DNA of 64,000 bases, taken from positions 704,001 through 768,000 of the forward strand of contig JBPOGI010000002.1 in assembly GCA_051251855.1 (NCBI GenBank), given 5' to 3'. Position numbers: made by a program. Numbering within the stretch: position 1 is the stretch's first letter; every line of letters starts with the position of its first letter. Shown piece after piece: positions 6,001 to 9,000 of the stretch. The stretch is from Roseibacillus sp. Lineage in GTDB: Bacteria; Verrucomicrobiota; Verrucomicrobiia; Verrucomicrobiales; Akkermansiaceae.

Positions 6001-9000
6001 CGCGGGGTCTCATTTTTTCCCCGCGGGTGGAGAGGGAATGGAGTCTGCGGCGAAAGCCGTGGAAGGGTTCTTAGGGGAAGTGTCGGAAGAGAGGGTGGTT
6101 TCGGGGAGTCGTTACGAAACTAAGCGAAAGAATATGAAGGCGCTCTGGGAGGGAGGACCGGAAGTCCGGGGTTGGAAGCCTTGGTGGCTGGTGATGGGGT
6201 TGAGCGCGGCTTTGGCTTGGTGGCGACCGCGGTTGACTTTGTTTATCGTGGCCTTGGGTGGAGGGCTGCTGATGTGGGATGCGGTGATTGGGTTTGTGGC
6301 GGTTTTTGGGGCTTTAGGTGGGAGGAAGTTCTTCGGAAAGCCTCTTGAGAAGCCAAGGTCGCGATGGTTTCCGATGCACCTCTTTTTCGATTTGGTGGCA
6401 GGGAGTTTAATTGGGGGCATGTTGCTGGCGGCTTTGTGAAGCAGCCTTGAGGCGGGAGAGTCCCAATTATTTATTGGCCCATGGCGGCGGTCCAGCCAAC
6501 GGCGGTGAGTCCGACGAAGACGAAGAGTCCAATCGCTAACCAGGCGATGAACTTGGGTTTCATGATGGTGGAGTAGAGAAAGAGGAGCTTGACGTCCATC
6601 ATGGGGCCAAAGACGAGGAAGGCGAGGCGGGCTGCGGTGCGCGCGGCGGCGGGTGGGGCTAAAGTCGCAGCGATGAAGGCATCAGAAGTGCTGCAGAGGC
6701 TGAGCAAGAAGGCGAGCGCCATGAAGGCGGCGGTTTGCCCGAGGGCGGAGCCTTCCATGGATTCGAGCCATTCGGCTCCGGGGGCGATGCCGACGTTGAA
6801 GAGGGCGGTGATGATGACGCCAATGGTGAAGTATACACCTACGTCGGTGAAATCCTTGAGGGCCGCGCGCATGGAGAGGACGACACGGTTCTGTCCCTCG
6901 CTGCCGTGGTGATGATCGTCGTGCTCGTGATGATGGTCATGGTCGCAGTCTTTGTGGTCGCAGTCGTGGTGAGGGTGTTCTTTCTCCTTCTTGGTGTCCG
7001 CGGGCAGTACTTTAGGCTTGAGGATTTTGTCCATGGGAATGCGGAGGACAATGAGACCGACAAGGATGGCGGCGAGGTAGCCGAGGAGGACGCGGGAGAA
7101 GGTGAAGAACTCGGCACGCTCGGACCAGGTCTCGAAGTCGGGGAAGGCATTCCAGGTCGAGAAGATGGTGATGGGGTTCACGATGGGCGCGGCCAGCATA
7201 TAGGCGAAGGCGCAGCTCACAGGGAGGCCTTTGGCGACGAGACGACGAATGACGGGGACGACGGCGCACTCGCAAACGGGGAGAATTAAGCCGAGGAGGC
7301 CGGAGACAAGAACGGCGGCTGTCTTGTTCTTAGGGAGCATCTTTTCCATCGCTCCGGCGGGGAGGTAGACCCCGAGAAAGCCCGAGAGAAGGGTCCCAAG
7401 CAGGATAAAGGGTGCTCCTTCAAAAAGGATGGATTTGAAGGCGATGGCGAAGTTGGCGAAGTCGTCAGGGGACACGCTGAGGAGGAAACCAGAAATGAGA
7501 GTAGAAATGCGAGCAATAACGAGTGTGAGTCTTATTGGCGCGGGGTTTTAGCCATCAGGGAGAGTAGAAAGTTTCCCAGTAAATCCTCAGGAGTTGTTTT
7601 TCATGTAATTATTTTGTTTTAAGTTGGTTGCGTTCTTTTTGTTGCCTTGTTTGGGCTTTTGGGAAAGCCCTTTCGGTGACCGATCTGTGTTCAATTCTCT
7701 GGAATAGTTGCGGCAACTGACTGATGTGGTAGGTTTTGACTGTTCTTAGATGAACAAACTACAATGAAACTAAAATTCGTATTTACGATGATGGCTGCTA
7801 GCGGTCTCTTCGTTGCGCCTGTTTTTGCTGACCATCATGGTGAGAAAAAGGCTGCAACAGAGGCATCAGCAGAAGGTTCAGTAGCGGCCTACGTGGTCGC
7901 TGCTTCTGGCGGCGGGTGAGGCGCTGCAGGAAAGGTCAGTTCGGCCTTGAAAAGTCAGGAAGGTGTCAAAACCGTCATTCTCTCCGGTCTCCGTGCCACA
8001 GTCATCATGGATGACGGCGCAGCTCTAGATGAAGCGAAGGTGAAAGCCGCCATCAAAGGAAAGAAGATGGAGTTCGTTTCCATGGAGAAGACCCAGATTA
8101 CTCGCCCTGTAGCGGCCTATGAGCTCGTGGTGAGCGGCGCTACATGAGCAATCAAAAATGAAAAGGCCCGTGTGGCCTTGGAAAAATTGGACGGAGTTTC
8201 CGGTGCGTTTGTGAATAACAACATCGCGCTCCACTTCTCAGAGGAAACCGAACTTGATGAGAAGCTTGTTGCTTCTGCTATCAAGGAGTTTGGAATGAAG
8301 GTGAAGAGCACCAAGAAGCTCGAAGCATTGCCATTCTAGCAGTTTCGATTCGATTAATTTTGAGAGGCCTGTCGCATCGTGCGGCAGGCCTTTCTTTTTT
8401 GGCTCTGTCAGGTTTGGGGAGTGAGAATACGGAGTTGATGTTGAGGAGCTTCGACTTCAGGCGTCGAGCGTTGAGGTAAAGCATCAGTTGGGGAACCGGA
8501 CTAGTTGTGGACGACTGAAGTCGACCCTCCTGTTGCCGCCGCCTCGGCTCCGCTTACTTGATGGGATGGGATGCCGCCTTGAGGTAGGATTTGGCCTTGG
8601 CGAGAGTTTTTTGGTGTTCCTCTTTTCCTGCGAGGTTGTTTTTTTCGAACGGGTCGGCCTCAAGATTGAAGAGTTCGAGGCTTCCTCCTTTGGCTTTTTT
8701 GTAGGCTTTCCATTTTCCGAAGCGAAGTGCTTGGGAATGAAGGGCTTGCTTTCCGCCGGTGGTGAACTCGATATAAAGATACTCGTGTTCTTCCTGTTCG
8801 CCGTCTTTGGTAAGGGTGGGGAGGAAGGAGAGGCCTGTGTTTTGCTCGGGGATGGGTTGAGCGAGGATCTGAGAGAAGGTGGGGAGGAGGTCGTGAAAGC
8901 CGCTGAGGTGATGGGTGCTGCTGCCTGCTTCAATTTTTCCGGGCCAGCGAGCGAGCATGGGGGACTTGATGCCGCCTTCATGCATGTCGCGTTTGTGGCC

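Follow-up and report, generated by a model that had tools for sequence, protein, structure and literature searches.

A predicted exported protein with two HMA-like domains and one in-frame UGA codon in each, encoded by a single gene of marine Akkermansiaceae

Three small neighboring gene calls on the plus strand of a Roseibacillus sp. contig raise the question of whether they are separate genes, or parts of one selenoprotein gene in which two UGA codons for selenocysteine (Sec) were taken for stops, and, in the latter case, what a protein with two Sec residues could do. The locus was analyzed in a window of 64,000 nucleotides (C6:704001-768000, with an offset of 704000 between contig and window positions), to which all coordinates below refer.

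One reading frame with two conserved UGA codons

Translation of the window gave a single frame of 191 codons that is closed by TAG and contains TGA at codons 52 and 128 (Table 1). Under translation table 11, this frame is split into ORFs at 7764-7919, 7947-8147, and 8172-8339, which are the three small gene calls (g02104, g02105, and g02106). A preliminary description of this locus had proposed that the calls belong to one gene with two in-frame UGA codons, and both the frame and the two TGA positions were reproduced; the three apparent mini-genes are one gene, which encodes a predicted secreted protein with two HMA-like domains and one predicted Sec in each. A terminator-like hairpin, detected by a consensus scan, starts 23 nt past the TAG, so that the gene looks monocistronic. 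In public protein sets, the gene is carried either as three fragments or with Trp at what are presumably the TGA codons (library proteins P0002-P0016, with Trp at both sites), and a conserved protein of marine Akkermansiaceae has therefore been effectively invisible.

Table 1. Features of the selenoprotein locus in window coordinates
Feature	Position	Strand	Evidence
Whole coding sequence, 191 codons + TAG, two UGA read through	7764..8339	+	54/54 strong matches with 2 in-frame TGA
Predicted signal peptide, residues 1-22	7764..7829	+	Inspection: MKLK, hydrophobic core, VFA before DHH
HMA-like domain 1, residues 39-113, beta-alpha-beta-beta-alpha-beta	7878..8102	+	AF2 blocks with pLDDT 93-98; structure matches
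UGA codon, predicted Sec52, motif S-G-G-G-U-G, beta1-alpha1 loop	7917..7919	+	TGA in 30/30 loci; aligns with first Cys of HMA4 motif; TGC in L081
SECIS-like hairpin 1, AAGGTC-AGTTC-GGCCTT, 6-bp stem, 5-nt loop AGUUC	7932..7948	+	Covariation
HMA-like domain 2, residues 117-185	8112..8318	+	AF2; structure and profile matches
UGA codon, predicted Sec128, motif S-G-A-T-U-A	8145..8147	+	TGA in 30/30 loci; aligns with first Cys of CopA GMTCxxC; Cys in P0017 and P0023; TGC in L081
SECIS-like hairpin 2, AAGGCC-CGTGT-GGCCTT, 6-bp stem, loop CGUGU	8163..8179	+	Covariation
Intrinsic-terminator-like hairpin (15 pairs) and T run	8362..8404	+	Consensus scan only

Comparative evidence for this reading was collected from 151 genomes of the family Akkermansiaceae. 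All 54 strong matches (E <= 4.8e-18) have exactly two in-frame TGA codons, which extends a previous count of one conserved TGA in the C-terminal part (19 of 19), and TGA is present at both Sec columns in each of the 30 loci read. The two Sec residues are separated by 76 residues in 29 of these loci, and the surroundings of Sec52 follow G-x-G-U-(G/S) in all 30. In every segment of the 30 loci, including the codons right after each TGA, codon position 3 varies more than positions 1 and 2, and conservation at the protein level continues across the codons that lie outside the three ORF calls. The carriers include Roseibacillus, Rubritalea, and Oceaniferula as well as many MAGs, all of them marine Akkermansiaceae. 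Cultured strains are among them, namely Roseibacillus persicicus KCTC 12988, whose gene (L057) is 81% identical, Oceaniferula spumae NT6N, Rubritalea marina DSM 17716, and R. profundi SAORIC-165. A phylum-wide sample of 401 genomes yielded no further strong members and only four weak matches (E 3e-4 to 9e-4), which are located inside ORFs of 720-815 aa.

It had been stated previously that no Cys-containing homologue was found in the genomes searched and that the Sec/Cys test is thus unavailable. Such homologues have now been found: the metagenomic relative P0023 (library-wide E 4e-11) has Cys at both Sec sites, with TGC codons at both in L081, and the relative P0017 has Cys at the second; the test is positive. 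The family is almost certainly a real double selenoprotein, and the conserved codons predict that selenium would be incorporated at both Sec52 and Sec128. In sequencing runs, only small-share contigs of relatives (90-95% alike) were detected; a metatranscriptome contig of one relative bridges the first TGA (7771-7985), and a contig bridging both (7768-8168) comes from a run whose RNA origin is a guess, such contigs showing neither expression level nor read-through.

SECIS-like hairpins and the Sec machinery

Shortly past each UGA, and within the coding sequence, lies a stem-loop with conserved loop G/U, as is characteristic of bacterial SECIS elements. Both stem-loops had been reported earlier as kept in relatives, and they were recovered here with compensatory changes in each. 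The reported spacing of 15-18 nt after the UGA codons is correct if counted from the U of UGA (15 nt for the first hairpin and 18 nt for the second), but corresponds to 12 and 15 nt past the codon; the range expected between UGA and hairpin in bacteria is that used by bSECISearch. In hairpin 1, 90.6% of cells are paired compared with 19-55% when the pairing is slid, and four of the six pairs change on both sides. Similarly, 94.3% of cells are paired in hairpin 2 (20-66% when slid), in which a seventh pair is formed in many relatives and three of the seven pairs change on both sides. None of 500 shuffles reached the covariation score of hairpin 1, nor did any of 500 reach that of hairpin 2. The loop G is invariant in both hairpins and is followed by a nearly invariant U in the first, and both loops have the form NGUNN, the same type as that of the SelD SECIS of this genome (GGUCU). 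When the window sequence is considered by itself, the hairpins show no more stability than shuffled versions (z +0.67 for hairpin 1 and -0.92 for hairpin 2), so that the support for them is purely comparative. A scan of positions 6000-10000 with Rfam gave no match at E <= 10, which is uninformative on bacterial SECIS elements if the library does not hold such a family.

The genome contains SelB (331 bits), SelA (456 bits), SelD (376 bits), and tRNASec (63.9 bits), and its SelD gene has an in-frame TGA of its own. Elsewhere in the window TGA is an ordinary stop, terminating 2 of the 11 genes with Pfam support and 10 of the 43 long ORFs, and a genome-wide reassignment of TGA can therefore be dismissed. 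Among the 54 gene-positive genomes, SelB was over the cut-off in 52 and split over two contigs in one more, and it was not found in one (93% complete). Conversely, nearly every SelB-positive genome from four marine genera has the gene, and 18 SelB-positive genomes of the family had no match to it. It is absent from genera without SelB, and the earlier claim that it is confined to genera with SelB is thus borne out across the 151 genomes. Both UGA codons would be decoded as Sec by SelB and tRNASec, each probably directed by its own hairpin in the coding sequence, 12-15 nt downstream and with a 5-nt NGUNN loop.

Export, HMA-like domains, and possible functions

The signal peptide of the preliminary description was supported by inspection, a basic n-region followed by a hydrophobic stretch being present at the start of all 30 loci; AF2 pLDDT is below 50 over this segment. 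As judged by eye from the N-terminus, the protein is probably exported, and since the signal peptide has no twin-arginine motif, export would be of the Sec type and would leave a mature protein of ~17 kDa. In two relatives (L042 and P0009), a Cys follows the hydrophobic stretch in a lipobox-like arrangement. The D-H-H at the mature N-terminus was considered as an ATCUN copper motif; this idea was rejected because D-H-H is confined to this genus and because an unrelated exported protein of 179 aa, the sole other match in the same genome, has an identical A-D-H-H...K-K stretch behind its signal peptide.

The AF2 model of the read-through product, built with Cys in place of Sec (pLDDT 85.3, pTM 0.74), consists of two complete beta-alpha-beta-beta-alpha-beta domains, and the two domains are 30% identical to each other (E 1e-4) with Sec aligned on Sec. 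The fold is ferredoxin-like and superposes on HMA domains. With VIA-align, domain 1 matched the RGA5 HMA domain (Z 8.9, rmsd 2.7 over 71 residues) and CCS domain 1 (Z 8.2), domain 2 matched the ZntA N-domain (Z 9.7, rmsd 2.0 over 70 residues) and Ccc2a (Z 9.1), and all of the top 12 matches (Z >= 8) were HMA domains. The top Foldseek matches were the tandem HMA domains of CopA, ATP7B, and WLN5-6, together with CopZ at TM 0.79. At the sequence level, the family profile matched Bacillus subtilis CopA among PDB sequences (E 3.9e-7), the first Cys of GMxCxxC being aligned with Sec, and the profile alignment with rice HMA4 covers both domains and places Sec52 at the first-Cys position. This protein scores 17.2 bits against Pfam HMA (PF00403), below the gathering threshold of 24.8, and 15 of 45 family members match that model at E <= 0.01 (best E 1.2e-7); homology is likely despite the sub-threshold score because the family profile matches the CopA HMA domain. 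Overall, we consider the HMA homology highly probable.

The two-Cys motif GMxCxxC is incomplete in the loci read. In all 30 loci, the residue at +3 from Sec is A/G/T/S/P/D in domain 1 and T/K/E/S/D in domain 2, and the two-domain core is free of any Cys in 28 of them. Together with the CopA and HMA4 profile alignments, these loci agree with the earlier description of two HMA-like domains, each with a lone Sec at the first-Cys position and no second Cys. As the two-Cys chelate is missing, no single domain can provide an HMA metal site of the classical kind.

Gene context was compared in the 30 loci and in a set of 10 longer loci, with four cultured strains among them, and no neighbor recurs across genera. 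The neighbors are genus-specific (ArsP_1 permease/sulfatase; rRNA-methylase-DAO/YjgF/DUF4190; IlvD/DEAD helicase) and of housekeeping type, and metal genes, whether cop, mer, cus, or others, do not recur beside the gene. In this genus only, the divergent neighbor encodes a permease of the ArsP_1 type that has a His-rich loop and a C-E-C motif; its adjacency, observed in only four loci, is a weak local hint at a metal role. The preliminary description had named the product a periplasmic metal-binding double selenoprotein. Its gene structure, two Sec codons, and fold have stood up; metal binding is suggested by homology and fold, with a gene neighborhood that lends it no support and with the canonical two-ligand site absent, and the odds that it is the function appear even.

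The best explanation of the whole, to which we assign a probability of about 0.6, is a monocistronic, exported, double-Sec tandem HMA protein that likely acts as a periplasmic soft-metal binder. Two homologous HMA-like ferredoxin-fold domains, the products of an internal duplication, would each place a single selenolate where helix 1 begins, at the first-Cys position of GMxCxxC. In the periplasm, the protein would most likely bind, buffer, or chaperone a soft thiophilic metal, for which Cu(I), Ag(I), Hg(II), and organometal cations are candidates. A two-coordinate site could be built from two selenolates, whether these come from Sec52 and Sec128 of one chain or from two different molecules; alternatively, each selenolate may hold a mono-coordinate ligand.

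A more speculative extension, which we regard as rather unlikely, is that the two lone selenolates form a single bis-selenolate site (intra- or intermolecular) that traps a metal or organometal or carries selenium; no such design has been described among HMA proteins. Unlike in HMA proteins with a CxxC pair, Sec would be the only ligand that each domain offers, instead of replacing one of two paired Cys residues. Given two Sec insertions per chain and the retention of the gene in almost every SelB-positive genome of the four marine genera, this protein may be one of the main reasons why these Verrucomicrobia keep the Sec machinery.

Besides soft-metal binding, a periplasmic redox or chalcogen-transfer protein, in which the HMA fold is merely a scaffold and Sec forms an interdomain or intermolecular diselenide, a selenenic acid, or Se-S/Se-Se adducts, would be compatible with the missing chelating Cys, and seems unlikely on balance. 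In the 28 loci without another Cys to resolve an oxidized Sec, the only partner would be the other Sec, and the two sites always occur together, as two TGA codons in the 54 strong matches and as Cys/Cys in P0023. Domain 1 also has an invariant S74-G75 and a mostly conserved R77 in its beta2-beta3 turn, which, reasoning from HMA topology, would share its end of the domain with the Sec loop; a U-x-x-x-C motif is present in domain 2 of three divergent relatives, and known bacterial selenoproteins are mostly redox proteins (PMC13188914, section 7). However, all likeness in sequence and fold is to metal-binding HMA domains and none to an oxidoreductase family, and no redox partner gene recurs nearby. 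A diselenide would also be hard to reduce in the periplasm on grounds of general chemistry.

It is quite improbable that the Sec of this exported HMA-fold selenoprotein binds neither metal nor redox substrate, the protein being used instead for periplasmic selenium capture or transport or as a partner of an envelope protein. The domain 1 loop G-G-G-U-G is identical to a pentapeptide in the Sec loop of many SelD proteins (GOS supplement), which was found in the GOS selenoprotein file in SelD only, but it is short and Gly-rich and could recur by chance. The near-constant presence of the gene in SelB-positive genomes of the four genera and a gene context that has no metal link would suit such a role, against which stand the failure to find a precedent and the fact that none of the loci read shows linkage to selD, selA, selB, or a transporter gene. 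Finally, that there is no selenoprotein here, but three distinct small genes, a gene in decay, or ordinary read-through or reassignment of stop codons, might be argued from the three called ORFs, from the frequency of such fragments in the protein library, and from the unremarkable single-sequence stability of the hairpins, but is hardly credible in view of the two TGA columns, the conservation beyond the ORFs, the covarying hairpins, the Cys replacements in relatives, the two complete modeled domains, the normal use of TGA as a stop, and the absence of the gene from genera without SelB.

Comparison with known selenoproteins and HMA proteins

The family is a predicted HMA-type selenoprotein that is missing from the selenoprotein catalogues checked. 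It is absent from the 119-family table of a 2026 review, and no description of this tandem HMA selenoprotein family was found in the literature on HMA selenoproteins, Roseibacillus selenocysteine, MbdU, and double selenoproteins. The GOS "MerP" selenoprotein was considered as a member and rejected, as its sequence is unrelated and three family motifs had no matches in the GOS selenoprotein file. As stated previously, the protein reaches no curated model, remaining below the Pfam HMA threshold and every NCBIfam cut-off, and the earlier scores for Pfam HMA and NF041115 were reproduced exactly. NF045648 (MbdU, a metal-binding double selenoprotein with a CU motif) did not appear when NCBIfam was searched at E <= 10, a search in which HMMER filters drop many weak matches, and the Cys-Sec (CU) dipeptide does not occur in this protein.

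This family would be a new entry on the short list of bacterial double-Sec proteins with a SECIS hairpin for each Sec, and one more among the few selenoproteins exported via the Sec pathway. A single selenolate with no second ligand is an unusual site in the HMA fold, and it raises the question of what one selenolate per domain binds in an oxidizing compartment. In addition, the family provides a clean natural case of a duplicated domain in which each helix 1 overlaps with a short SECIS element, which should be useful for SECIS models in a phylum in which few have been described.

Among known HMA proteins, the N-terminal part of B. subtilis CopA (PDB 1p6t, 2rml) also has two HMA domains in tandem. 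It is the best match of the sequence profile, with both CopA domains aligning to domain 2, and the best two-domain match in Foldseek (E 6e-6); however, each CopA domain carries GMTCxxC, and CopA is a cytoplasmic part of a pump and differs in the relative orientation of its domains (rmsd 14.8 A over 147 columns). Each domain of the present protein superposes well on CopZ and Atx1 (PDB 6ff2, 1cc7; rmsd 2.0 and 2.7, respectively), which are cytoplasmic single-domain proteins with CxxC, and the NCBIfam CopZ models give 14-16 bits against cut-offs of 85-95. MerP (TIGR02052) is, as is predicted for the present protein, an exported HMA-fold protein for a soft metal, but it is a single domain and keeps the two-ligand motif, whereas the protein described here is a tandem with a lone Sec per domain; it scores 13.6 bits against the MerP cut-off of 92.55, and no mer genes were present among the neighbors scanned.

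Among HMA-type selenoproteins, the pump-fused form also has Sec at the first Cys of the HMA motif, but it is cytoplasmic and has kept the second Cys (UxxC), whereas the present one is a free exported protein without it. The best NCBIfam match is UxxU_metal_bind (NF041115), which covers residues 121-150 with 22.8 bits against a cut-off of 95. Like the present family, it is a small HMA-type protein with two Sec residues and with Sec at the first metal-ligand position. Its two Sec residues, however, belong to one UxxU motif, which was found in none of the 30 loci, within a single domain of ~74 residues, whereas the Akkermansiaceae protein has a signal peptide and distributes its two Sec residues over two domains, one in each, 76 residues apart and with no partner at +3.

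Gene structure, conservation and use of TGA

Judging from sequence comparison, the gene for the exported tandem-HMA protein is a real, conserved and uncatalogued double selenoprotein gene. The three small genes called at this locus, which the preliminary description had already joined, are pieces of a single frame with two in-frame TGA codons (site 1, Sec52; site 2, Sec128), and they agree with the ORFs obtained under table 11. That description had the window positions right, the window being C6:704001-768000. A strong hairpin resembling an intrinsic terminator lies 23 nt past the stop codon, and Rfam gave zero matches in window 6000-10000.

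Positions of the gene, its in-frame TGA codons and other loci discussed (window positions unless a locus or contig is named)
Feature	Position	Strand	Basis or remark
Coding frame, 191 codons, TAG end	7764-8339	+	reading of sequence
In-frame TGA, codon 52	7917-7919	+	reading of sequence
In-frame TGA, codon 128	8145-8147	+	reading of sequence
Table-11 ORFs in frame	7764-7919, 7947-8147, 8172-8339	+	ORF scan
ArsP_1-family permease	6471-7475	-	divergent, upstream of selenoprotein gene
SelD of own genome	L010, C7:93121-94050		positive control for SECIS
Family member ending in a third TGA	L020 1501-2079	-	
Family member with lipobox-like leader	L042 1345-1983	+	
Unrelated exported protein, own genome (C1)	L055 1495-2034	+	
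Cys/Cys homologue with GTPase neighbour	L081 1089-2351	-	

In a six-frame search reading through stops, 55 of 151 genomes of the same family had a match at E <= 0.01, of which 54 were strong (E <= 4.8e-18), and all 54 strong matches contained exactly two in-frame TGA codons. Apart from the window's own genome, strong matches occurred in genera g1 (7 of 8 genomes), g11 (15 of 15), g12 (14 of 15), g15 (13 of 15) and g20 (4 of 15); the 55th genome, from genus g3, had only a weak match inside a 783-aa ORF. Translation of 30 returned loci bore out the reading as one gene with two in-frame UGA codons, both Sec columns being TGA in 30/30, always within the motifs G-x-G-U-(G/S) and G-x-(G/T)-U-(A/S/G/V). 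In 29 of these loci the second Sec follows the first by 76 residues, and the two-domain core is free of Cys in 28, each of the other two having one non-aligned Cys. Codon position 3 was more variable than positions 1 and 2 in every segment, including the 9 and 8 codons after the TGAs that would be non-coding under the three-gene reading; third-position entropy there was 1.02 and 1.21 versus 1.45-1.61 elsewhere, a reduction that is expected if RNA structure adds constraint. The stop codon across the 30 loci was TAA in 19, TAG in 10 and TGA in one. At locus L020 a third TGA ends the gene straight after the C-terminal LPY, so that of the three UGA codons in the mRNA only the last acts as a stop, the first two encoding Sec.

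TGA also serves as an ordinary stop in this genome, which rules out its genome-wide reassignment: of the 11 Pfam-supported genes in window 1-19000, 2 end in TGA, as do 10 of the 43 ORFs with 300 or more codons. The genome encodes SelB (331 bits), SelA (456 bits), SelD (376 bits, with one in-frame TGA of its own) and tRNA-Sec (63.9 bits, gathering score 47). SelB was above the cut-off in 70 of the 151 family genomes, including 52 of the 54 gene-positive ones; in the other two, SelB is divided between two contigs (G114) or was not found (G104, 93% complete). The restriction to SelB-containing genera was upheld, none of the SelB-less genera among these genomes carrying the gene. Eighteen SelB-positive genomes had no match to the selenoprotein, nine of them in g20.

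Cysteine homologues and hairpins after the UGA codons

HMMER, run exhaustively against 1.84 billion representatives, returned 57 matches at E <= 0.001, of which 18 sequences were inspected; the long multi-stretch matches P0018, P0026 and P0041 lay outside this set. All 13 near-full-length relatives inspected have W at both Sec columns, which we infer to be TGA translated by gene callers under code 4 or 25, and many further matches are proteins of 42-72 residues whose matched ranges fit the three table-11 ORFs. Public protein sets hold full-length Trp/Trp forms (P0002-P0016) and, going by length and matched range, the three fragments. Although the preliminary description considered the Sec/Cys test unavailable, Cys homologues were found and the test was positive: in P0023 (199 aa, 31% identity, E 4e-11) both Sec columns are occupied by Cys, encoded each time by TGC on L081, a metagenome contig of high GC content, and in P0017, a fragment that begins past the first site, Cys occupies site 2. 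Each domain of P0023 has a single Cys, implying that the design of one chalcogen per domain is independent of Sec. Two other long matches, P0028 and P0034, were rejected as repetitive and unrelated. In three divergent metagenomic relatives (P0010, P0014 and P0016), a Cys occurs four residues past the second Sec column in domain 2 (U-x-x-x-C), one residue off the canonical second Cys of HMA domains.

The 45 nt from each TGA could be aligned gap-free over 30 loci. At site 1, columns 16-21 pair with 27-32 in 90.6% of cells (19-55% if the partner is slid), with changes on both sides in 4 of 6 pairs; at site 2, columns 18-24 pair with 30-36 in 94.3% of cells (20-66% if slid), with both-side changes in 3 of 7 pairs. 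Neither covariation score was reached by any of 500 shuffles, and one locus has an entirely different stem at site 1 (AAAATT/AATTTT). Both hairpins have a 5-nt loop, NGUNN, whose G is invariant. The same loop type was found in the positive control, the SelD gene of the same genome, itself a selenoprotein (Sec motif S-C-A-G-U-A), in which the hairpin ACGCA-GGUCU-UGCGU follows the UGA by ~27 nt. Considered without their homologues, the window hairpins do not exceed dinucleotide-shuffled sequences in stability (z +0.67 and -0.92), and the case for them as SECIS-like elements rests on comparative rather than energetic evidence.

Fold, export and likely function

By inspection, residues 1-22 resemble a signal peptide of the Sec type, with MKLK leading into a hydrophobic core and VFA adjoining DHH. 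The leaders of L042 and P0009 end in a lipobox-like Cys (...MSC-KD and ...LASC-KD), and some members may be lipoproteins instead of soluble periplasmic proteins. An unrelated 179-aa exported protein at L055 shares the signal peptide and the following A-D-H-H...K-K stretch, which accounts for the sole other match in the genome.

An AlphaFold2 model from a 45-row alignment, with Sec replaced by Cys (mean pLDDT 85.3, pTM 0.74; blocks of 93-98 within residues 41-180), contains two beta-alpha-beta-beta-alpha-beta units (residues 39-113 and 117-185), with Sec52 and Sec128 in the respective strand 1-helix 1 loops. Foldseek against PDB placed tandem HMA proteins on top (B. subtilis CopA 2rml, E 6e-6, then 1p6t, ATP7B and WLN5-6), and single domains superposed on CopZ (TM 0.79, rmsd 2.0) and Atx1; tandem ACT domains (SerB2) were also matched, as expected from the ferredoxin-like fold. 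In an independent all-versus-representatives structure alignment, the 12 chains with Z >= 8 were all HMA, including ZntA for domain 2 (Z 9.7, rmsd 2.0, 70 residues) and the RGA5 HMA for domain 1 (Z 8.9). The family profile matched B. subtilis CopA (E 3.9e-7), with Sec128 on the first Cys of GMTCxxC, and rice HMA4 (E 5e-4), with Sec52 on the first Cys of its motif. Of 45 family members, 15 match Pfam HMA (E 1.2e-7 at best), and the sub-threshold scores reported for the window protein itself were reproduced (Pfam HMA 17.2 bits, cut-off 24.8; NF041115 22.8 bits, cut-off 95). Structure and profile comparisons thus agree in predicting that both domains are HMA domains, and their mutual likeness (30% identity, E 1e-4, Sec on Sec) points to internal duplication.

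The function we infer from these features is that of a probably periplasmic binder of soft metals through selenolates, which appears most likely because HMA homology, the register of Sec and the export signal all point to it. Each domain would offer a single ligand, which is unusual; as both sites always co-occur, whether as Sec or as Cys, a two-coordinate site to which both domains contribute, within or between molecules, would be attractive. The chief alternative is a role in redox chemistry or as a chalcogen carrier through a Sec-Sec diselenide, and the beta2-beta3 turn of domain 1, with S74-G75 invariant and R77 mostly conserved, would fit both the metal and the redox readings.

Occurrence, gene neighbours and known selenoproteins

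With one genome scanned per species, 25 loci were obtained, from Roseibacillus (R. persicicus KCTC 12988 being 81% identical), Oceaniferula spumae, Rubritalea profundi and R. marina, and many marine Akkermansiaceae and Verrucomicrobiales MAGs, among others. Sampling 401 genomes from across the phylum added no strong member. Two copies on short contigs (L074, 7.8 kb; L078, 10.4 kb) in MAGs labelled Crocinitomicaceae and Thermodesulfobacteriota show 45-46% identity to the window protein, as do Rubritalea-type members, and are probably misbinned Verrucomicrobia contigs.

The upstream permease reaches 90 of the 300 bits required by the SO_0444 Cu/Zn efflux model; one of its predicted membrane stretches contains the motif C-E-C, and a loop of ~30 residues is rich in His, Asp and Cys. 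It adjoins the selenoprotein gene at only four loci, all of the same genus; neighbours in other genera are unrelated housekeeping genes, and no metal- or redox-related neighbour recurred in the loci read. In a single observation, a metallochaperone GTPase of CobW/HypB/UreG type adjoins the Cys/Cys homologue on the opposite strand.

No description of the family was found in literature on HMA selenoproteins, Roseibacillus selenocysteine or double selenoproteins; bioRxiv supplements and RefSeq annotations of cultured strains, which were outside the scope, could already name it. The 'MerP' selenoprotein listed in the GOS catalogue (PMC2398784) was rejected as a member, its sequence in supplement file 3 being unrelated and having 0 of 3 motifs of the family. 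The Haft 2022 preprint (10.1101/2022.07.06.499078) describes members of the SO_0444 permease family that contain Sec and, for other systems, proposes contacts between Sec and metal. Among the 119 families in Table 1 of a 2026 review (PMC13188914), none is a tandem HMA protein with one Sec per domain: the HMA-related entries are NF041115, with UxxU within one motif, and the HMA domain of P-type ATPases, with UxxC, whereas MbdU has a CU motif. HMA-type metal-binding selenoproteins are therefore already known, and what is new here is the tandem, exported arrangement with one Sec in each domain.
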